64,000 bases of DNA from a virus. Lineage: Duplodnaviria; Caudoviricetes. Positions 4,341 to 47,907 of the stretch are shown here, piece by piece (the stretch's first letter is position 1; every line of letters begins with the position of its first letter). The notes beneath the pieces are model-generated. The model had not been told where the DNA came from. It saw only the letters and a program-made list of their open reading frames with translations, and searched no databases. Made by a program: the position numbers and the translations under genes. The DNA lies in the IMG/VR virus record IMGVR_UViG_3300047160_022640, positions 23,769 through 87,768 of that record, one strand, 5' to 3'.

Positions 4341-9968
<5,628 letters not shown>

Positions 9969-34961: not shown

Positions 34962-35234
34962 TCAGATCCCTTTCTGTAGCGCACAGATACGGCTAGGCAC
35001 ATTGAATGACGTGCCGATCTTGATCGCACCAGCTTGTTCTTCTTGCGCGAAGTAGACCATCGCGCGCGGATTGCTATGCTGACGGGCTACTTCGATTTGC
35101 CAGTCCTCTTTTCTGTCAAGCCATTCCTGAACTAACTGACGCTTGATATCTCGAGATCCTTCAAAGCACGGATCATCCGTACCGCCTCGACGCATGGCTT
35201 CCTCGTTGAGCCAGAGAACAAAATCAGTGTTCAC
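34962..35234 (-). pseudogene. Truncated T5orf172/GIY-YIG-like protein
   Basis: VYFAQ..AIKIGTS..SRICALQ then an immediate stop. Confidence 0.5.
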
Positions 35235-36319
35235 GACTCTGATGCCTTTTTTCGGTTTGCGAGCGCCTCGTCGAGCAGTCCGCGTCCTGCCGATTCTTCG
35301 ATGAGCCCTGCGCGCCGAACATAACCAAGTAACTCTTTCGTGCCGTTGTGTCCGGTCGACTGCATGATGTCGGGTACCTTGCGCCCTAGCTTGTAGGCGC
35401 TAGTGACAAATCCGCTTCGCAACGAGTGACCTCCGAAATTCGCAGGATCCAATCCGAGCAATGCGACATAGTGCTGCACGCGTCGCGATACTCCCTCAGG
35501 GGCTAGCCCTCGCTCTGCGATCTCGCCGCTGTGCATGTCGACACCTCGAAACACTGGGCCTCGGTCGATCTTCGATACGGCGAACCATCTCCGAAGCGCT
35601 GCAACAGGGCAGTACCGCGTGTCCGTCGCAGGCGTGAGCGCAACGCGCAATGTCTTCCCTGTCTGATCGGCTTTGCTGCGCGGAATCGTCCAAATGAACG
35701 CGCCGCCCGGCTCGGCGACGTACTGAAAGTGCTCAACGTGTGCTCCAGCAATCTCGCTTCGCCGGCGTCCGCCGCCTTGCCACCCGACGAGAAGCATTGC
35801 GCGATCGCGAATCCCGCGAACATCATCACTTATCAGGTCGCACACGCGAAATAGAAGTCCCTCTCCCGTGATCCCTAGATCATGCTTCTGCCGCTTCGGC
35901 GCGGTACCCTTGAGTCGCGCTAGCGTATCACGATGTTCGGTGATAAGCGGTTCATGCCAGGGACTTACGTGTCCTGCCGCACGATGGCTTCTGCATATCG
36001 CCGACAAGGTACGGATCAACGCACTGTACCCGAACGGTCCCTTCGGCTTTCCTCGTTTTAGATCAGCCGGATCGCGCCCCTTGTCCGCGAGCTCCTGCAA
36101 GTAGGCGCGGATGGCCTTTGGGGGCGCCGGGAGCGGCTCAAGCCCATGACGAGCACACCAGGAGGCGAAACAGGCCAACTCGAGCTCGTAGGCTCGCCTA
36201 GTGTTCGGCGGGATAACTTCTTCGGCCGCCTCCTCTGCACGCCGATCAAGCGCAACGAGCTCTCCCTGCGCGCGCGCTAGCGCGTGCTCCTCGTGTTTGG
36301 ATATCTGCTTATCAGTCAT
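35231..36319 (-). CDS. Tyrosine recombinase (Cre-like, N-terminal SAM-like domain)
   Basis: NTRRAY..FASWC; RDRAMLL..RRSEI; SKADQ; HSLRSG; TGH..ELLGY. Confidence 0.93.
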   Translation of the reverse strand: MTDKQISKHEEHALARAQGELVALDRRAEEAAEEVIPPNTRRAYELELACFASWCARHGLEPLPAPPKAIRAYLQELADKGRDPADLKRGKPKGPFGYSALIRTLSAICRSHRAAGHVSPWHEPLITEHRDTLARLKGTAPKRQKHDLGITGEGLLFRVCDLISDDVRGIRDRAMLLVGWQGGGRRRSEIAGAHVEHFQYVAEPGGAFIWTIPRSKADQTGKTLRVALTPATDTRYCPVAALRRWFAVSKIDRGPVFRGVDMHSGEIAERGLAPEGVSRRVQHYVALLGLDPANFGGHSLRSGFVTSAYKLGRKVPDIMQSTGHNGTKELLGYVRRAGLIEESAGRGLLDEALANRKKASES

Positions 36320-36565
36320 CGGTGACCAAGAACCACGACATCGAGCGGCGCGCTCGGCGTCGACACAGTACCTTGTCCGAGAATACGCACTACGGGCGAC
36401 GGCGCCCACTGTAGAGCGCGCGCAAGCGCGAAGAGGGCCCGCAAGTTCTTTCTACGCTGACGAGCGAGACGACGGCGGCCAGATCGCGGCATCGCAAAAT
36501 ACGCTGTTTTCGAGGCTGTGCTGCATATCTGATCTATTACATATACACGGTAAACGCCTTACAGT

Positions 36566-39895: not shown

Positions 39896-40137
39896 CGGAA
39901 CATCAACCTCCACCCTTCATGTAGTCGATTGATCGTCATAACCGTTTCGGCGGCCGCATGTCCGTTGCTGAGCTTCACAAGGAGCTCGTTCATCCCGAGC
40001 GTGTACTTACGACCTTGCTCTACGACGATACCGGGACCGACACCGATGATGAGTCCGCGGCACCAATGCGTGCGCTTGTCATTGTCGCTGTTCTGGCGGA
40101 GGACTTCTACGAACTTGCCGCGTTCAGGAAGATTCAT
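39892..40137 (-). CDS. Hypothetical protein
   Basis: 81-aa ORF in the operon. Confidence 0.55.
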   Translation of the reverse strand: MNLPERGKFVEVLRQNSDNDKRTHWCRGLIIGVGPGIVVEQGRKYTLGMNELLVKLSNGHAAAETVMTINRLHEGWRLMFR

Positions 40138-40171
40138 GCGCGCGATACCCGAGAATGTCGTGCTCCCGTAA

Positions 40172-40339
40172 TCACTTCCCCTTCTCGTGTAACCGCTTCG
40201 CCTCTTTCTCTACCTGTTCGATACGCGCAGTCAGTTTCTGGTTGATCTTTTTTCCTCTGCCTTGCGACAGCTTGAGCTGTTTGAGCAGCGTGTACGCTTC
40301 GCGCGATGTCTCGAACTCTCCAGATTCTCTTTCAGCCAT
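40172..40339 (-). CDS. Small hypothetical protein
   Basis: MAERESGEFE..KRLHEKGK, translated by hand; overlaps the upstream stop. Confidence 0.45.
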   Translation of the reverse strand: MAERESGEFETSREAYTLLKQLKLSQGRGKKINQKLTARIEQVEKEAKRLHEKGK

Positions 40340-41096
40340 TGCTCTGACTCCAATTTGGTTGACACGTTTCCAGTAACGTTTGTGCCATCTCGCGACGCAA
40401 CTGACGGCGAGTAGCGCCCCACTGGTCGATCGCCGGCTTCAGTGCTAATTCTGCTTCGGCGAGGTCGGCGAGGTCGGCGCGGGCGGCGAGGGCGGCGAGG
40501 GCGGCGCGGTCGGCGAGGGCGGCGAGGTCGGCGAGGTCGGCGCGGGCGGCGCGGGCGGCGAGGGCCGTATCCTCGGAGTCGATCGGGGGAAGCGCACGCA
40601 TCCTGGATGCAAGCTCCGACGATGACGCGCACGCTTTCTCACACGCAGCCACGACATCGGGATGTTTCTCGAGGCCGATGCAAGCGGCTCGCATGAGAGC
40701 GATGCTCGTTTCAAGCGAGCGGGGATACCAGTCGCGTAGGCTGCGGTCCCAGAGAATGAGCGCGACCTTCGCCGAATCGCCGCGTGCCGCTGTCCCTCGA
40801 AGTGCCATCTCGAGCGGTCCCAGATCGCGCGTGCGCTCGATCGCTCCCTCGGCGGTGTCAGGGTAGGAGTCGTTCAACACTCGCCCGAATGCCGCCCTCA
40901 CCTTACAGACCGAATCATCCGGATGGTCCGTCACCTGATCGCGATGCTCTTCGAGCCACATGCGCAGATTCTCCGACCTCAGAATATCCGCTGGGATGGA
41001 GCACGCTTCGAGCAGACAGAGTTTGCAATCCCGTCCGCCTTTGGCTCCGTATGCGAACGTGAATCCATCGGGCAATGCTGATTCGGTTTGATTCAT
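40332..41096 (-). CDS. Hypothetical protein with Ala/Leu/Asp/Arg low-complexity tract
   Basis: AGGAG ribosome-binding site before MNQTES; ALAARAARADLADL repeats. Confidence 0.65.
   Translation of the reverse strand: MNQTESALPDGFTFAYGAKGGRDCKLCLLEACSIPADILRSENLRMWLEEHRDQVTDHPDDSVCKVRAAFGRVLNDSYPDTAEGAIERTRDLGPLEMALRGTAARGDSAKVALILWDRSLRDWYPRSLETSIALMRAACIGLEKHPDVVAACEKACASSSELASRMRALPPIDSEDTALAARAARADLADLAALADRAALAALAARADLADLAEAELALKPAIDQWGATRRQLRREMAQTLLETCQPNWSQSNG
40458..40565. repeat. 12 x 9-bp coding tandem repeat GGCG(A/C)GG(T/G)C
   Basis: Read directly from the sequence. Confidence 0.9.
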
Positions 41097-41123
41097 ATCG
41101 GACTCCTGAGTTGTCTTTCTGAG

Positions 41124-41166
41124 TCCCCGCCGCAGGAATCGAACCTGCGCACGCACCGTGACGGGG
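41124..41166 (-). ncRNA. tRNA-like minihelix (acceptor stem + T-arm, no D or anticodon arm)
   Basis: CCCCGTC-11 nt-GCAGG TTCGATT CCTGC-GGCGGGG-A. Confidence 0.45.
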
Positions 41167-41175
41167 GCCTACTTA

Positions 41176-41658
41176 TCAAAACGGTGGAGGTGTCTGTCCT
41201 CCGTTCGGTGCCGCTCCGCCGCCGCCGCCTCCGCCACTAAGAGCCTTGAGACGGGCCTTGAAGTTCTCCGGAGTGACCGGCTTAGAAAGCGTCACGGTGC
41301 CGGTCCCGATGTCGATCTCGAGCTTCGGTTGCCCCATCTTCGTCATGCCATCCTTGTCGCGGAATTGCTCAGGCGCCTTCACGCGACACTTGACCCAAGT
41401 GCTGTAGATATCACCCAGGTTGTCGATCTCTTCGACGCCTTTGCCTTTCCAACCGAGCGCGCGCAGTCGCTCGAACGCATACACCATAGCGTCTTCGGTG
41501 AAGTACAGAAACGTCGTCATCTGTCCGACGACGTTCTTGTTCTGTTCACGCAATTCCATATTGAGCGCGATCTGAAGTGATCCGGTTCCGGTTTCTCCGT
41601 ACTGCAAGCTGCCTTGAATCGCTCGACCTTCGTAGTTGTCACCTGCTGCAATTGCCAT
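41176..41658 (-). CDS. Putative single-stranded DNA-binding protein
   Basis: OB-like beta pattern, Gly-rich linker, ends PPPF; follows AAA_24. Confidence 0.6.
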   Translation of the reverse strand: MAIAAGDNYEGRAIQGSLQYGETGTGSLQIALNMELREQNKNVVGQMTTFLYFTEDAMVYAFERLRALGWKGKGVEEIDNLGDIYSTWVKCRVKAPEQFRDKDGMTKMGQPKLEIDIGTGTVTLSKPVTPENFKARLKALSGGGGGGGAAPNGGQTPPPF

Positions 41659-41659
41659 T

Positions 41660-42574
41660 TCACTCTTTCTCCTTGCTAACTGTTGCCTTTGCCGCGCGCG
41701 CTTCTTCCAGACGAGCCGCGACTCGGTTGCGAGCCTCGACGATCATTCCTGGGTACGCGCGCAGATATTCTTTCACCTGCTCGTTGAGCTTGCTGTCTCC
41801 GATCTCAGTGAGCATCACCTCGATCTCCTTGCGGAACGTCTCGGCGCGCTCGAGGTCGGCCGAGCGCGCCTTAGCGAATTCGTCCCACGAGAGCAGAAAC
41901 CGTTCCGGAAACGTCGTCAGCGCGCGCGCCTTCGCATCGAACGCCGGGCACCGGCGGGTGTGCGCATAGCGCACGTCGGTCGTTACCGCTTTGAATTCGC
42001 CGCCGACCTTCTGCTGTGAGACTTCCTCGCGAGCGAAGAAGACGTACTCATTCCACTGACGAAGAAGCCCGGCGATTTGATCGCGCATCGCCACCTGGAA
42101 GCGATCGTATCCGGGGCCGCTCGGATCGTCGAAGTGCTTCACCTTCATGTGCGCCGTGAAGACGATCGCGTGCCCAGATGTCCACACGCGTTCGAGAATG
42201 CCGAGGAGCTCGCGCCATCTAATAACAGCAATAGTTTCACCGCGGCCGTAACCACCGTCCCATTTATCGATCGTAGTTCCCTGGAAGAACTCAGCGTTCC
42301 CGAGGTACTCGAGATCACCCGCAGCATCGATCACTAGTGTCTTGCAACGCACCTGGTTCGTCGCGACAGCGTCCACCCAGGAGAGCGTTTCGGTCCACGT
42401 CTCCGGTACGACCCGCTTGACGTCGTATTGAAAACTCCCCTTGTTGAGGTCTAGGAAAAACGGATCCGGAGCGCCGGCGGCAAACTTGGTTTTGCCAATG
42501 CCGTCGGCGCCGTAGATCAGCACGCGAGGTTCGCGTTGCTGTTTGCCTTCGCTGATTCGTTTAAGATCGATCAT
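41660..42574 (-). CDS. AAA_24 family ATPase (Sak4-like recombination protein)
   Basis: VLIYGADGIGKTKFAA, TLVID, WDGGYGRG, IVFTAH; real start MIDLKR downstream of the array. Confidence 0.88.
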   Translation of the reverse strand: MIDLKRISEGKQQREPRVLIYGADGIGKTKFAAGAPDPFFLDLNKGSFQYDVKRVVPETWTETLSWVDAVATNQVRCKTLVIDAAGDLEYLGNAEFFQGTTIDKWDGGYGRGETIAVIRWRELLGILERVWTSGHAIVFTAHMKVKHFDDPSGPGYDRFQVAMRDQIAGLLRQWNEYVFFAREEVSQQKVGGEFKAVTTDVRYAHTRRCPAFDAKARALTTFPERFLLSWDEFAKARSADLERAETFRKEIEVMLTEIGDSKLNEQVKEYLRAYPGMIVEARNRVAARLEEARAAKATVSKEKE

Positions 42575-42605
42575 GGTCTTCCTTTTAAAATGGGGACGGC
42601 GCCCG

Positions 42606-42778
42606 GTAGCCTCGCGCAGCTGTTGATCCTGGGCGGCCTGCGCGAAGAGCTGCTGCCCGTGCGCCAGTCGCGATATTCGTAGCCTCGCGCAGCTGTTGAT
42701 CCTATCGGAGAATGGACGGACGATGACACGGCGCGAACCATGTCGCGATATTCGTAGCCTCGCGCAGCTGTTGATCCT
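42606..42778 (-). CRISPR. Mini CRISPR array: two full 37-bp repeats + one 25-bp partial terminal repeat, 2 spacers (38 and 36 nt)
   Basis: Repeat (minus) AGGATCAACAGCTGCGCGAGGCTACGAATATCGCGAC at 42742-42778 and 42667-42703; partial at 42606-42630; unique spacers 42704-42741 and 42631-42666. Confidence 0.9.
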
Positions 42779-42807
42779 CGTCATCAGGATACCGTGTAAT
42801 TTCGACA

Positions 42808-44391
42808 CTATGCCGCCCGCTCTGCGAGCACCTTCGTCGCGCGAGTAAGAATCACCTTTGCGGCACCCTGATCCTTATCCCTCACGAGACCGCAGCCGGG
42901 ACACGCAACGAGCAATTCTGGTCCATTTTCCACTAGTTCGCCGCACTCTGGGCACTCGCGAGTCGTGTTGCGAGCGGGTACCGTGATTATCTCGGCACCG
43001 TACCGCTCGCAGATCTGCGTGAATTCGTATCGAGCCGAAATGTCCCTAGTGCTTCGCTGTCGGCGCTTCCGTTGTTCCTCCTTCTGTAGCCGTTTGATCT
43101 GAGGCACCGATTCGTCTTCGAACGCGAAAATTGCGTATCGACCACGAAGTTCGCGAACAGTGCGCAGATAGAGCTCACGACGCAAGTTCACGATCCGCTT
43201 TCGGCGCGCCGTGATTCGTCGTTCGTAGCGCATCTCCCAGCGCAACCAATCGGTCTCCTCCGGGGTTCGTACACCCGATCTCATTAACGCGCGTCGGTAG
43301 AGGTATCGATTCCGATGCGCCAACCCGAGTGTTTTTTGTCGAGCTTTGTACGCCTCGTCGAGTCTTCCTTTCATAGTATCGATTTCGTCGAGCGCTGTCC
43401 GGCACTCTGCCGGAATCAAAACTTCCCCACGCTCGCCGTCGTCACCGAGCCATGTGAATACCCGAATCCCTTCACGCCAACGCTCGTGACCGTGCTCGCG
43501 ATGACCCCAATCAAAGGCCACCATGCGCGACTCAGCGCGCGGAACAGATGGCTTCTCCATTTCGATCGTCATGCTTACAGAGTAACTCCAGCGCTCGCCG
43601 TCCTTTCTGCGTGTGAGCTTCATGGTGCGAAACCCGGCATCAAGTGGGATCTGGTGCCAGTTGCCGCATTTTGCTCGCATACGGATCCATTCGTCATTGA
43701 CGCCGATTCGAAGTTCCAGAATCCACCACAACTTCCCGCGTTCTACGATGCGGAAGCCTCCACGATCAGCGGAAAGCGTCACCGGGTCGCGATACTTTGG
43801 TCGACGTAACTCCGCTGGCACACCGTGGGTCCTCGACATCACAACTGCCTTGCGCGCCTGATCAACGCTCCTGAGTAGAGCGTTCCAGGTGCCCCAGTAA
43901 ATGTGCCGAGATGCGTACAGCGTGGCGCGATACGTCTCGCGACGAGTGAGCTTTGTACGACGTTTCGCGCAACGTTCCTCGAACTCAGTCTCACTCTCAC
44001 CGGTTCGACGGCGAGCGCCACCGCGATCCGGTGCGTCTAGAGCCGGCGTGTCTGCCCACGTCAGTGCTTCCTTCCACCTGGGATCAGTGTTGCGTACCGT
44101 ACGAAGCTCCGTGAGCAGGCCTCGAAGCTTCTCGGCTAACTCCGGACGAGGGTTCGGGGACCACGTCCCTTCTGGAGATCGCTCGAATCGTCGCGCGCGG
44201 TGCGCGAGACGCGCAACGATCCGTCCGACCCGAACGATGCCTGGAGCGATCGTGTCGGCTGCGGCATCCATAACTCGCTGATGTTCGTCTTCGAAATCAA
44301 GCAGCCGATGGTACGTCCAACGCGCTGAGGCACATTCCGAGGAAATGCGATCTTCGCGTTCCAGTAGAGAGGGGCGTGAGAGGGTCAGCAT
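42808..44391 (-). CDS. Compact type V CRISPR effector, Cas12m (V-U1)/TnpB-like
   Basis: YWGTWNA..G.PA.LR; RuvC-I VAFDWGHR (D294), RuvC-II FAFED (E425), CxxC-x13-CxxC zinc finger, RuvC-III RDKDQGAA (D507); array 29 nt downstream. Confidence 0.85.
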   Translation of the reverse strand: MLTLSRPSLLEREDRISSECASARWTYHRLLDFEDEHQRVMDAAADTIAPGIVRVGRIVARLAHRARRFERSPEGTWSPNPRPELAEKLRGLLTELRTVRNTDPRWKEALTWADTPALDAPDRGGARRRTGESETEFEERCAKRRTKLTRRETYRATLYASRHIYWGTWNALLRSVDQARKAVVMSRTHGVPAELRRPKYRDPVTLSADRGGFRIVERGKLWWILELRIGVNDEWIRMRAKCGNWHQIPLDAGFRTMKLTRRKDGERWSYSVSMTIEMEKPSVPRAESRMVAFDWGHREHGHERWREGIRVFTWLGDDGERGEVLIPAECRTALDEIDTMKGRLDEAYKARQKTLGLAHRNRYLYRRALMRSGVRTPEETDWLRWEMRYERRITARRKRIVNLRRELYLRTVRELRGRYAIFAFEDESVPQIKRLQKEEQRKRRQRSTRDISARYEFTQICERYGAEIITVPARNTTRECPECGELVENGPELLVACPGCGLVRDKDQGAAKVILTRATKVLAERAA

Positions 44392-44394
44392 GGT

Positions 44395-45252
44395 TTAGCC
44401 TCTAATCGCTCGCCAATCTCCCGCGCGGAGCTTTTTTGTCACTCCGGCCGGCATCTCCTTGATCGTGTCGAGCCACGCCGCGATGTCAGTCGCAACCGTA
44501 TCCTCCGCTCGCTTCGAGATTCCGCCGTTGCCATTTTTGCCGCCGTTCACGATCTCACGGGCCTTGGTCGCGTTCCCGCGTCGCTTCTTGCCGACCGCAC
44601 GTGGCGCGTGCTCCTTGAGCTCGGTGACCTTCTCACGGGCCTCAGATGGTTCCAGCTTCGAAAGCTTGTAACCCTCGCTGGCAGTGATCTGTCCCGCCTC
44701 GACAGCGTTACGCACCGCTGCCGGAGCATCGAGCAACGAAAGCAAATTTTTGATCGAGGCTTTACTGACCCCGAACAACACCGCGATCTCTTCTTCGGTG
44801 TGCCCAAGCTCGATGAACCGTTGCGCTTTACGCGCCCGCCCGAGCGGCGTGTCGTCCTGGCGATTCTCGTTCTCCGAGATCAACATCGCCATTCCGCGGT
44901 GCGCATTGGCGCGCGCGATCATGGCTGGGACCCGGAGAAGCTCCGCGCCCTGCTTCTTCAAACGCTTGTTCGCTTCGCGCGCCGCCTTGACTCGCTGCCG
45001 CCCGACCGCAACCTCGACCTTTCCGGTCTCCGGATCCCGCACGACCGTGATCGGCTCGAGAACGCCCTGCGGTGTCTTTCCGTCCGGAGCGTAGAGCATG
45101 TTCATCACCAGCGATTCGCTCACCGGTAGGTGCACGCGCTCGTCGAACAACGGATGCTTTTCGTCCGTCACGAGAACCAGATCCTCCGGGTCGAACATGT
45201 AGGCGTCGCGTTTACCCTTGGCGTTCAGTGCATCTCTCGATTGTTTCGGCAT
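44395..45252 (-). CDS. ParB/Srx-like N-domain protein with HTH
   Basis: GVLEPITV..VAVGRQRVKAA; ISENENRQD; EEIAVLFGVSKASIKN. Confidence 0.8.
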   Translation of the reverse strand: MPKQSRDALNAKGKRDAYMFDPEDLVLVTDEKHPLFDERVHLPVSESLVMNMLYAPDGKTPQGVLEPITVVRDPETGKVEVAVGRQRVKAAREANKRLKKQGAELLRVPAMIARANAHRGMAMLISENENRQDDTPLGRARKAQRFIELGHTEEEIAVLFGVSKASIKNLLSLLDAPAAVRNAVEAGQITASEGYKLSKLEPSEAREKVTELKEHAPRAVGKKRRGNATKAREIVNGGKNGNGGISKRAEDTVATDIAAWLDTIKEMPAGVTKKLRAGDWRAIRG

Positions 45253-45270
45253 GGTCGTAGTCCTTTCAGC

Positions 45271-45290
45271 GGTGACAGAGTGGTGTCACC
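45271..45290. promoter_or_regulatory. Palindrome upstream of the parB-cas12-array block
   Basis: GGTGACA-GAGTGG-TGTCACC perfect 7-bp arms. Confidence 0.35.
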
Positions 45291-45298
45291 TTGACATC

Positions 45299-46381
45299 TT
45301 ACGACGCGGCACTCAAAAGCATTCCCACCGCATCCGTTTCGACAATGGCGTCCACTCGCCCGCCGAGCGAATACGTTCGCGAAGCCGCCCCTGTCTCTGG
45401 ATTCACCAGTGGGATGCGAAACGTTTGTTCAACCGCGATCAGGCCGGTCGGTTTGCCCCACCGAGCGGCATACCCTACGAGCATCGCTAGCTCCTTCGCG
45501 CGCGTGTAGAGCTCCTCGAGCGGAGCTTCTGGTTTGCTACCGGTGAGCAGTGCAGCCTTCGCCGCTTCCAGATCGCCGCCGGTGCGCCGATACACATCAA
45601 GCGCCGCATGAATACTCGTCCCCGTGCTCAGAGTGTCCGCTTTCTTGAGCGACCGTCTCCGGAGTTCGTAGTAGAAATAGAACTTGCGCGGACAGAGCCG
45701 GTACTTGCGCATCGAGCTCTGCGTCAGCAGATCAAGATCGGCGGAAACGTTGCCGCCCTCCTCGACGAGCTCTGCGTGAAGATCCTTGTCGGTCCTGAAC
45801 AGAAGATCGTCATCGATCGACGCGAGCCCCGAACACACGTTGAGGTACTCGCACTCGCGTGACCACTGCAGACAAGAATCAGGATTTCGCGGGTAGATTT
45901 TCAGTCGGCGCGCCTCGCGCATCTGGGCAGCCGTGTTCCAGGTATCGAAAGCCGCTTCGCGCTCGTCCTGCTCGAGTCGGACGACGACGCCGCGCGCGTA
46001 GTACTTGTCGGGAGCCTCGGCAATGACTTCCAAGCAGCGATCGTGGAACTCTGCTGGGGTTTCGGGACGCGACTGGAGCACGTACCCGAGCTCAGCATCT
46101 CCGGTCTGCCGCCATTTTTTGCCGTCCTTCGTACGCACGCGTTGTCCAGAGGCGTCGAGAACGATTTTAATGCCGTTCTCATCGAGTGTCGGGACGGCGC
46201 TCGGGCGGATGTCAGGTTTTCGGAGGACATCGTAGACAGCCCCGTGCGGGTCGTGACCGAGCTTGCGGATAGCGGGGAGATAGACGGAGAGCTGCGGGTC
46301 TAGCGTGGTGCGCTTCCAGAAAGTGGAGCCGGAGGAGAGGTCCTCGGAGGTTGTCTTGCTTTCCCAAAGATAGACCTTCAC
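45299..46381 (-). CDS. Circularly permuted PD-(D/E)XK (Cas4/AddB-like) nuclease
   Basis: Order ESKTT, QLSVY, C-x6-C-x5-C, then TQSS..CPRK, GTSIH, VEQTF, GRVD; GTG start overlaps the HNH stop. Confidence 0.8.
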   Translation of the reverse strand: MKVYLWESKTTSEDLSSGSTFWKRTTLDPQLSVYLPAIRKLGHDPHGAVYDVLRKPDIRPSAVPTLDENGIKIVLDASGQRVRTKDGKKWRQTGDAELGYVLQSRPETPAEFHDRCLEVIAEAPDKYYARGVVVRLEQDEREAAFDTWNTAAQMREARRLKIYPRNPDSCLQWSRECEYLNVCSGLASIDDDLLFRTDKDLHAELVEEGGNVSADLDLLTQSSMRKYRLCPRKFYFYYELRRRSLKKADTLSTGTSIHAALDVYRRTGGDLEAAKAALLTGSKPEAPLEELYTRAKELAMLVGYAARWGKPTGLIAVEQTFRIPLVNPETGAASRTYSLGGRVDAIVETDAVGMLLSAAS

Positions 46382-46953
46382 GTGAGCCACTTCCACGTTT
46401 GCATTGTACAAATGCGTTGTACATGAGACCTAGAAACACCGAATCGAGCACCTATCGCGTCGTAAGTGGCTCCGGTGCGATTTCTTTCTCTGCGAATACG
46501 AAGGACAACATCTCGAGAGAACTTGTTTAAAGAATTGCGTTCTCCCTTAGCGTAAGTTCCAGATCGGCGCTTTCGACGGTTATTTGCCTGTTCGGTAGCG
46601 GTCGCCCATCTGCAATTTCCAGGTTCGTAGTTGCCGTTCACATTTGGAAAACGATCGATCGAGTGTGATCGAGACGGTTTTGGACCCATGTCCTTTAAAA
46701 ACGCCGAGAACGAAGTGCGCCAGCGATCGCAAACCGTAATTCCGCGACCTCCGTAGAGCGGGTCCATTTTATCAGCGCATCTGCGCTTCATTCCTTGCCA
46801 AACGCGGTATTCAGGAGAGCCCTCCTTGCCGTGAGTTTCTCGAAAATGGACCTCTCCAGGAGCCGCTGACTTGTGCCACTTTTGGTAGTGCGTGGAACAC
46901 AATCCGCGCGCACGTGATACATTACGACATCCGTTGATAGAGCAACGAGTCAT
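46378..46953 (-). CDS. HNH homing endonuclease
   Basis: YGGRGITVCDRW..HSIDR..NGNYEPGNCRWAT..QANN; lower GC than its neighbours. Confidence 0.9.
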   Translation of the reverse strand: MTRCSINGCRNVSRARGLCSTHYQKWHKSAAPGEVHFRETHGKEGSPEYRVWQGMKRRCADKMDPLYGGRGITVCDRWRTSFSAFLKDMGPKPSRSHSIDRFPNVNGNYEPGNCRWATATEQANNRRKRRSGTYAKGERNSLNKFSRDVVLRIRRERNRTGATYDAIGARFGVSRSHVQRICTMQTWKWLT

Positions 46954-47639
46954 GATTGACGTCGAACCTTGAATGGCAATTCAGACGCATCTTCAACCGC
47001 CATGGTTCGCCACCATTCTTTTCGAACTGGATTCCAACGAAATCCGTTGGATTTGACCATCTCTCGTTCTTCGAATGCAGCAAGAGATATAAATTTCGCC
47101 TTCGGTCGCATCCCGTATCGAATCAGCGCCTCGAGATCGTGTCCCTTCTCGGCGAGGCGAGTCAGGATCCTGGCCAGCGTGTCGACGTCCGCCATCGCCC
47201 GGTGCGCGCTCGCAACGCCGAGTCCGTAGCGGAGCGCCAAGTGCGCGAGCGACCCCCCGCGCCCGCCCTTCTGACTACCGGGCCACCGAATGTCTTCTTC
47301 GGTGCAAACCCAAGGGCGACCAAGATCCGGCGTGAACTGCTGATCGAACGCAGCGTTGTGCGCGAGAATCACCGAAGCCGGCTCGATCACCCACTTTGCG
47401 GCGCTCCAGACGCGATCTGACTCACGCGCCTCGCGAATCATTTCTTCTGGGATGCCGTTTATTTCCCACGCCTTGTTCTCGTCAGCGCCGCGAATGAGAC
47501 TCGCAAAACTTGCGACCGCCTGCGCATGCTTGATGTCGAAGAGCATCACCGCGACTTCGATCGTCTTTCCGACGGGCGGCGGCTCTAGATCGGTCGTCTC
47601 CGTATCGAGGAGACCCACGTACCGGATGGGTTCCGTCAT
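46950..47639 (-). CDS. DEDDh 3'-5' exonuclease (DnaQ-like)
   Basis: LLDTETT, LAHNAAFD, AHRAMADV. Confidence 0.9.
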   Translation of the reverse strand: MTEPIRYVGLLDTETTDLEPPPVGKTIEVAVMLFDIKHAQAVASFASLIRGADENKAWEINGIPEEMIREARESDRVWSAAKWVIEPASVILAHNAAFDQQFTPDLGRPWVCTEEDIRWPGSQKGGRGGSLAHLALRYGLGVASAHRAMADVDTLARILTRLAEKGHDLEALIRYGMRPKAKFISLAAFEEREMVKSNGFRWNPVRKEWWRTMAVEDASELPFKVRRQS

Positions 47640-47677
47640 GCCAGTCCTTTCTCTCTCGCTCAACTCTCTCGACGCAG

Positions 47678-47707
47678 AACGTAGACCCCGAAGTCGACGG
47701 TTGTCAA
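47678..47707 (-). promoter_or_regulatory. Sigma70-like promoter of the leftward recombination/CRISPR operon
   Basis: TTGACA-N18-TACGTT in the divergent intergenic region. Confidence 0.5.
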
Positions 47708-47736
47708 CGTTAGAAAGACAAGCTACGGTTCGGAGC

Positions 47737-47907
47737 ATGGAAAACACCGAGAAACTGGTTTCTGCTCGCGTAGGAAAGTCGCTCTACGCGAAAATTCTCG
47801 AGCGACAGAAGGAGGCGAAGAAACAAACCGGAATCGAACCGACCGTCAGCGCCGTTGTGCGGGCCATGCTCGAGGAGTCGGCGGAAAACGGGAAGAGGCG
47901 GCGATGA
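47737..47907 (+). CDS. Ribbon-helix-helix-like regulator
   Basis: KLVSARVGKSLY..SAVVRAMLEE; GGAG ribosome-binding site. Confidence 0.6.
   Translation: MENTEKLVSARVGKSLYAKILERQKEAKKQTGIEPTVSAVVRAMLEESAENGKRRR

Follow-up and report, generated by a model that had tools for sequence, protein, structure and literature searches.

A phage-borne type V CRISPR-Cas module, probably of the Cas12m lineage, in the replication and recombination gene block of a soil phage

The virus record IMGVR_UViG_3300047160_022640 (IMG/VR, 87,768 bp) was analysed over a stretch of 64,000 nt, referred to here as the window, in which the gene of a compact Cas12m-like effector is followed by a two-spacer CRISPR array. The record is a virus, a complete phage genome from soil, as judged from its origin in IMG/VR, its CheckV value of 100% and phage proteins such as a tail fibre and a primase (the annotation of the record gives collagen-like tail fibres and a primase/polymerase). 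Searches of sequencing runs found near-identical DNA in soil metagenomes of 23 listed studies, and in four other soil-metagenome runs fragmentary contigs showed 100% identity wherever they covered the array, with patchy cover and no array variants. The locus is placed in a phage recombination/replication gene block, and the effector gene and array consist of the following features:

42808-44391, minus strand: effector gene, 527 aa, Cas12m-like (V-M/V-U1 lineage), ATG at 44391, stop codon included
42779-42807, minus strand: linker of 29 nt from the effector stop codon to the first repeat
42742-42778, minus strand: CRISPR repeat 1, 37 nt, its 3' 33-34 nt being the conserved CRISPR RNA (crRNA) handle; covariance model R1, 50.8 bits, E 2e-12
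42704-42741, minus strand: spacer 1, 38 nt, single copy in the genome
42667-42703, minus strand: CRISPR repeat 2, 37 nt, same sequence as repeat 1
42631-42666, minus strand: spacer 2, 36 nt, 78% G+C, single copy in the genome
42606-42630, minus strand: truncated terminal repeat, the first 25 nt matching the repeat exactly before the sequence diverges; R1, 12.9 bits

The locus had been described beforehand in a first-pass annotation, made by a model from the letters alone, and re-reading of the minus strand returned every position given there for the open reading frame (ORF), the 29-nt gap, the repeats, the spacers and the start 3 nt after the upstream parB gene. The gap between gene and array is about the same in relatives (~30 nt), and a promoter scan found nothing on the minus strand of the 29-nt linker, which is weak evidence; the promoter and terminator scans were uninformative.

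Profile and structure searches against Cas12 subtypes and TnpB, proposed in the first-pass annotation as a check on its RuvC/zinc-finger, "Cas12m/TnpB-like effector", placed Cas12m first in PADLOC, the PDB and Foldseek. The best family match was the PADLOC model Cas12u1 (V-U1, now Cas12m) at 1.5e-34, and the only Pfam match was the Cas12f1-like TNB zinc ribbon PF07282 (residues 460-514, 7.5e-10). The runner-up PADLOC model, PDLC01692, is labelled Cas12f and matches bona fide V-U1 proteins equally well; the NCBIfam model guided_TnpB matched the C-terminal part at 5.6e-11 and 42 bits, under its cut-off of 100. When the PDB was searched with the single sequence, UnCas12m4a (23vu) was the best match (7e-16), followed by Cas12m 23vw, and a profile of 65 relatives returned 23vu (1e-22) and 23vw (3e-22) ahead of the mimivirus Fanzor2, Cas12m2 (8hhl) and GoCas12m (8pm4). 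An AlphaFold2 model from the family alignment had a mean predicted local distance difference test (pLDDT) score of 90.4, and the top four Foldseek matches to this model were all Cas12m, from 2e-21 (8hhl) and 2e-20 (8pm4) down to 1.6e-16, with Cas12f (2e-12) and TnpB (1e-11) nine orders of magnitude behind. VIA-align superposed 473-478 of the 527 residues on Cas12m, REC lobes included, and 339 on TnpB; the TnpB structure 8h1j ties on Z. The Cas12m/V-U1 type named at first pass was thus borne out by PADLOC, PDB, Foldseek and VIA-align, and the effector is, as judged by its sequence and modelled fold, a divergent relative of Cas12m (type V-M, formerly V-U1), with 16-20% identity to the solved Cas12m structures. 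The motifs YWGTWNA..G.PA.LR and GIRVFTW quoted earlier are present in the protein; the resemblance to Cas12m claimed for them played no part in this classification.

The putative catalytic residues are D294 (RuvC-I), E425 (RuvC-II) and D507 (RuvC-III), which align with the RuvC residues of 23vu, and the zinc ribbon is formed by C480, C483, C497 and C500. Across 65 relatives with 44-76% identity, no substitution occurs at D294, E425, D507 or C497, and conservation at C480, C483 and C500 is 90% or higher. Because the D-E-D triad and the zinc ribbon are conserved across the clade, the RuvC and zinc sites show every sign of purifying selection. The effector carries D-E-D and not the non-canonical triad of the characterised Cas12m clades 1-2, whose members have HDD or NDD triads and only bind DNA. 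This difference sets it apart from the characterised non-cutting clades but not from Cas12m as a whole, because clades 3 and 4 of the published Cas12m scheme are also DED or NED; for these, DNA hydrolysis has been predicted and not demonstrated (PMC10442227).

A word-indexed search recovered 127 relatives at 43-76% identity, nearly all of them metagenomic and several on contigs of 43-113 kb. The INPHARED phages contained no homologue of the effector, and 185,579 species-representative genomes contained three, all on contigs of metagenome-assembled genomes (MAGs; Sorangium, Acidobacteria and Actinomycetes). A profile search of 1.84 billion representatives gave 31 clusters at E <=1e-30 and then a sharp drop to about 115 bits. 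Ten proteins were sampled among the representatives listed: the eight past this edge match Cas12u1 at 1e-82 to 1e-120, seven of them over the full length, whereas two members of the effector's clade match the same model at only 1e-25 to 1e-30. The proteins past the edge are mostly D-E-D with a DxGWR motif, and the effector's family has DWGHR. In an unrooted FastTree phylogeny of 135 representatives, built without named reference sequences or an outgroup, the effector family, a subclade with a D-D-D triad and three intermediate sequences form one clade (28 representatives, support 100) apart from 105 V-U1-like representatives, with a stem branch length of 0.65. The tree that the first-pass annotation had called for yields a separate clade, which may be nested in V-M or sister to it. 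RuvC-I and RuvC-II are also closer together: they lie 127-135 residues apart in each of the 65 family members, compared with a median of 155 for the V-U1-like proteins. The D-D-D subclade (P0124, P0126, P0129, P0130 and P0133; about 500-528 aa, with a DTGHR motif) is sister to the effector family, so that the RuvC-II residue does change within the wider clade.

The array shows the generic features of CRISPR: its direct repeats are constant in length, its unique spacers are similar in size, and spacers vary among relatives. When a 25-mer of the repeat was searched with up to three mismatches, exactly three sites were found in the window, with 0.00 expected from 100 shuffles, and no further repeat-like copies occur elsewhere in the whole viral genome. 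Both full repeats contain the CGCGA/TCGCG stem pointed out at first pass, are predicted to fold into it and score under R1 like the repeats of long arrays. An alignment of 32 distinct repeats, taken from six loci, shows variation at the first three positions and conservation of the 3' 33-34 nt. These repeats fit a pseudoknot model in which columns 10-12 pair with 21-23 (AGC with GCU) and columns 15-19 with 31-35, and 98.8% of all cells pair. In the 5-bp stem 15-19/31-35, 99.4% of cells are paired and all five pairs change on both sides (CG, UA, AU, GC); its covariation score was reached in 0 of 500 shuffles, and when the partner was shifted by one to three columns, pairing fell to 17-47%. The 3-bp helix 10-12/21-23 is invariant, hence uninformative on covariation. 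Counted from the spacer, the helices lie at -28..-26/-15..-17 and -23..-20/-3..-6, coinciding with the published helix positions of the PmCas12m crRNA, whose mature form has a repeat part of ~33 nt and a guide of ~17 nt; the conserved 3' 33-34 nt agree with that handle. By this covariation the repeat is shown to carry what appears to be a crRNA handle under structural selection.

The helix positions also fix the reading strand of the array as minus, that of the gene, and place the handle on the 5' side of the guide, the arrangement of type V; the direction proposed at first pass is borne out. The third repeat is without the 3' half of the stem and would thus head no third crRNA. Components of larger systems were sought around the array and in the whole genome. 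Profiles of Cas1 and Cas2 had no match in the whole viral genome, while control genomes responded, and within 40000-47000 no stretch complementary to the repeat (anti-repeat) exceeds 8 nt; the earlier statements that cas1, cas2 and a gap the size of a trans-activating CRISPR RNA (tracrRNA) are missing agree with both searches. A PD-(D/E)XK gene at 45299-46411, two genes upstream of the effector, was considered as Cas4 and rejected, as it belongs to a conserved gene block that also occurs in relatives without the cassette.

At the examined loci of relatives, arrays of 1 to ~38 repeats with unique spacers lie directly downstream of the effector gene. Two complete viral relatives from one metagenome, of 94 kb (locus L002, genome G003) and 109 kb (L003, G004), have 17-19 and 38 repeats after the homologue, L006 has ~16 and L011 ~20 repeats, and L008-L010 have one repeat and one degenerate repeat; on the Sorangium and Acidobacteria MAG contigs, too, the array directly follows the effector homologue. 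The modal spacer length in arrays is 34-38 nt, and no spacer is common to different phages. Identical spacers that never vary had been named at first pass as an outcome that would speak against a CRISPR array; the spacers of relatives differ instead, and at the level of sequence the arrays are shown to undergo apparent turnover among phages.

The 38 repeats of L003 (5687-8227; IMGVR_UViG_3300032893_000012) are heterogeneous, with the stem variants CGTGG/CCACG, CACGG/CCGTG and CGCAG/CTGCG all compensated, and its spacers range from 11 to 57 nt, the short ones not being restricted to the gene-distal end. As read from these repeats and spacers, the L003 array is unlike arrays kept uniform by Cas1-Cas2 duplication. 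A solo repeat (50.6 bits) was seen at L011:4010-4046 (minus strand; Polyangiaceae MAG contig BTVD01000070.1), ~2 kb upstream of the effector gene and on the opposite strand, and a second array of the same repeat family lies on a different contig of the Sorangium sp. MAG, at the contig start (G001:C24:1054-1558). The effector P0017 (557 aa) recurs without sequence change on at least 24 contigs of numerous runs, and in three of these runs it is accompanied by the same one-spacer mini-array of one complete repeat, a spacer of 34 nt and a degenerate repeat (L008/L009/L010:7701-7808).

Protospacers were searched for in several collections. In the phage's own genome both spacers match only the array itself; exact 20-24-mers of both had no match in IMG/VR, nor had exact 22-mers in the contigs of JGI metagenomes, and against INPHARED phages and PLSDB plasmids both gave only matches with E >=0.9. 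The whole 2.5-kb array of L003 likewise had no match in INPHARED and PLSDB. Among 301 genomes from the order of the Sorangium MAG, searched with the first 24 nt and up to three mismatches, spacer 1 had two matches and spacer 2 matched 45 genomes, which was not above the reversed-pattern control. Matches of 98 spacers from seven arrays to three complete related phage genomes and 21 loci stayed at chance level (best 25/29 nt, E 0.13 per query). Spacers are 62-69% G+C whatever the G+C of the carrier phage, and those of G004 are richer than its genome (0 of 2000 resamplings), a weak hint that spacers may derive from other, G+C-richer DNA.

The genes on either side of the module, named ParB-like and AAA_24 at first pass and identified as such by the Pfam and PHROGs matches given below, are:

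44395-45252, minus strand: ParB-like gene, upstream neighbour (PF17762, 1.1e-11; phrog_1033, 4.9e-48)
41660-42574, minus strand: AAA_24/Sak4-like single-stranded-DNA-annealing ATPase gene, downstream neighbour (PF13479, 7.9e-31; phrog_124)

The parB stop codon occupies 44395-44397, 3 nt ahead of the effector ATG. ORF calling also produced a spurious 382-codon frame that crosses the array: the Sak4-like gene really starts with the ATG at 42574, since the alignment with homologues from 16 viral loci begins at the first residue of the shorter version. This Sak4-like gene is common to the 16 viral loci. Related viruses without the cassette, for which the first-pass annotation had proposed to look, do exist: in L025 and L033 ParB is followed by Sak4 across a gap of 265 nt without repeats or cassette, and nine further related phage loci have the same block and no cassette beside Sak4. 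The cassette of the window fills the ParB-Sak4 gap exactly, that of G004 lies ~4 kb downstream of Sak4 and directly before a Dam methylase gene, and that of G003 has an unrelated neighbourhood. By this comparison of gene order, the CRISPR module is to all appearances a mobile accessory cassette within the replication/recombination gene block. The block itself (window 45299-47747 and 41176-42574; loci L021-L033) comprises an RNaseT-like exonuclease, a helix-turn-helix protein, the PD-(D/E)XK nuclease, (ParB), the Sak4-like ATPase and a 160-aa protein, is found at 45-75% identity on at least 13 viral contigs and looks like a recombination module.

Combined, these results make it likely that the locus represents a type V CRISPR-Cas module of the Cas12m lineage that is self-contained and phage-borne, carried as a mobile accessory cassette in the replication/recombination block. 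The effector gene and the two-spacer array would share one minus-strand transcript with the early replication/recombination genes, as suggested by their same orientation, the 29-nt gap and the lack of a terminator. The protein would then bind the conserved 3' 33-34 nt of each repeat, whose pseudoknot fold is shown by covariation, and trim the transcript into two crRNAs, each a handle with the 5' part of a spacer, with no need of a tracrRNA; the truncated third repeat may serve only to bound spacer 2. The crRNAs would guide binding of double-stranded DNA that depends on a protospacer adjacent motif (PAM). The likeliest consequence, to which we give about an even chance, would be nicking or cleavage of the target by the RuvC D-E-D site, in difference to the binding-only HDD/NDD Cas12m proteins; as the triad is invariant in 65 diverged sequences, the site can be argued to do chemistry, be it DNA cleavage or RuvC-dependent processing of crRNA. 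The targets would lie neither in the phage's own genome nor in the reference sequences searched; competing mobile elements or host DNA in the soil are presumed.

Several points weigh against parts of this interpretation. The Cas12u1 match is partial (residues 227-519) and reaches 118 bits, where canonical members score 270-400, and a long branch in an unrooted tree parts the clade from canonical V-U1-like proteins, so the effector clade may be a sister group of V-M and not a nested member. Conservation of D-E-D is no proof of DNA cleavage: Cas12m2 did not regain cleavage when its triad was changed back to DED, and pre-crRNA is processed by the RuvC site of Cas12c and Cas12j (PMC10442227). No protospacer appeared in any collection searched, and hence neither PAM nor target class can be named. 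The sequencing runs listed for the locus include no RNA run, and transcription and processing are deduced from the DNA. Additionally, the two-spacer array with its truncated end could be a decaying remnant.

An alternative that we regard as possible though not favoured is one in which the protein is a silencer that binds its target without cutting, blocks its transcription or replication, and uses the DED site for pre-crRNA processing or for holding the non-target strand. All Cas12m proteins studied experimentally (MmCas12m2, GoCas12m and PmCas12m) bind without cutting, and both the HDD-to-DED result in Cas12m2 and the RuvC-dependent processing of Cas12c and Cas12j fit this explanation. The studied proteins, however, have the non-canonical HDD or NDD triad, whereas D-E-D is found here in 65 of 65 family members; the authors of the clade scheme expect the DED clades 3 and 4 to hydrolyse DNA by a two-metal mechanism; and the existence of the DDD sister subclade indicates that the triad is not frozen by descent alone.

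A further-reaching view, which we put forward tentatively and hold to be rather doubtful, is that the clade is a phage-restricted sister subtype of V-M with a catalytically active RuvC, that is, a tracrRNA-free DNA cutter of 510-560 aa with a 33-nt handle whose arrays are built and reshuffled without Cas1-Cas2. The compensatory stem changes within one array, the spacers of 11-57 nt and the differing cassette sites suggest that guide units may be exchanged by recombination between co-infecting phages and not acquired by a ruler-based mechanism.

It is improbable that the cassette is vestigial, with the array being what is left of a longer one and the module idle in this phage. Close relatives do have 15-38 repeats compared with 2.7 here, and the distal parts of their arrays are decayed, with degenerate repeats and spacers cut to 11-25 nt; against this, the effector ORF is intact with every invariant residue kept, the two full repeats are the same and their scores match those from long arrays, the P0017 lineage (at least 24 contigs) has retained a one-spacer array with no difference among three runs, and the array pieces covered in four soil runs are unchanged. 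An omegaRNA is a longer scaffold that overlaps the 3' end of its gene and carries a single guide. That the gene is a TnpB-type passenger of an IS200/IS605/IS607-like transposon, with the repeats as omegaRNA or transposon ends, is very unlikely, for although guided_TnpB matches below its cut-off, PHROGs labels the effector 'transposase', 8h1j ties on Z and the position of the cassette varies among related phages, neither TnpA nor a serine recombinase adjoins the gene here or at seven relatives' loci, the 33-34-nt handle lies outside the ORF in 1 to ~38 copies with differing spacers, the REC lobes align with Cas12m (473-478 residues versus 339 for TnpB), and neither a tnpA, nor transposon ends, nor an omegaRNA-like single guide was seen at the locus, transposon ends and an omegaRNA being what the first-pass annotation had listed as counter-evidence. 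The comparison with IS200/IS605 TnpB and its omegaRNA ends in differences, with multi-unit arrays, variable spacers and extra REC parts here and no transposase.

The preferred reading, a self-contained Cas12m-lineage module, can be set beside known systems. Virus-borne mini-CRISPR arrays and the phage type V effectors Cas12j/CasPhi and Cas-lambda have reportedly been described by Medvedeva in 2019, Pausch in 2020 and Al-Shayeb in 2022; like the present module, they are carried by viruses with short arrays and no adaptation genes, with a compact single effector that presumably processes its own crRNA and a presumed use against competing elements. Type V-M (MmCas12m2, 8hhl/8hio; GoCas12m, 8pm4; PmCas12m; UnCas12m4a, 23vu) shares with the locus a compact single effector with a TnpB-like RuvC and a zinc-ribbon TNB, REC lobes alignable over about 475 residues, and a repeat of 36-37 nt with the same pseudoknot positions in its 3' part. 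The absence of tracrRNA and the array directly downstream are also V-M traits, and adaptation genes are likewise missing from the one virus-borne V-M locus so far published. In contrast, the 16-20% identity, the weak Cas12u1 score, the separate clade, DWGHR in place of DxGWR, the shorter insert between RuvC-I and RuvC-II and the invariant D-E-D in place of the HDD/NDD of characterised proteins distinguish the effector from these V-M proteins.

A Cas12m from the myxophage MV-1, MvCas12m, has been described as the 'first Cas12m identified in a bacteriophage'; it has 610 aa, the residues D305/E463/D555 and eight spacers, with no cas1/2/4, no tracrRNA and no protospacers found (bioRxiv 10.64898/2026.09.14.751636). 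The present module resembles it in being phage-encoded with an adjacent array, in lacking cas1/cas2/cas4 and tracrRNA, in its DED triad and in having no protospacers found, and differs from it in effector size (527 versus 610 aa) and number of spacers (two versus eight). The host of MvCas12m was assigned to Polyangiales, and some relatives of the effector lie on Polyangiaceae and Sorangium MAG contigs. From the spacing of its catalytic residues, MvCas12m would fit the canonical V-U1-like group and not the effector's clade. Viral effectors clustering with Cas12m/V-U1 were also reported in a landfill virome paper of 2025, and a literature search for the names 'Cas12m4' and 'UnCas12m' found no paper. 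Phage-encoded Cas12m is therefore already known, and what is new here is a well-supported member of a compact, DED-invariant and so far uncharacterised clade.

With only three matches in 185,579 species genomes compared with more than 120 protein clusters, Cas12m-lineage CRISPR modules emerge as recurrent cargo of soil phages, and this cargo appears to change its position within phage replication modules. Members of the clade are more compact than the Cas12m proteins that are now being engineered and have kept an intact D-E-D site; if they cut DNA, the clade would offer a very compact, single-RNA, self-processing nuclease and the first evidence for the predicted nuclease-active Cas12m clades. 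Mini-arrays with one or two fixed guides imply few constant and important targets, and identifying these targets would show what the phages fight.

Elsewhere in the window, an 1875-aa collagen-like tail-fibre protein is encoded at 4341-9968, with PHROG tail-fibre matches over multiple stretches and E-values down to 4e-138. At 35321-35821, within an ORF at 35231-36409 on the minus strand, there is a match to tyrosine recombinases (PF00589) that is weak and stays under the cut-off (E 2.3e-5, 20 bits); it suggests that the phage may be temperate.

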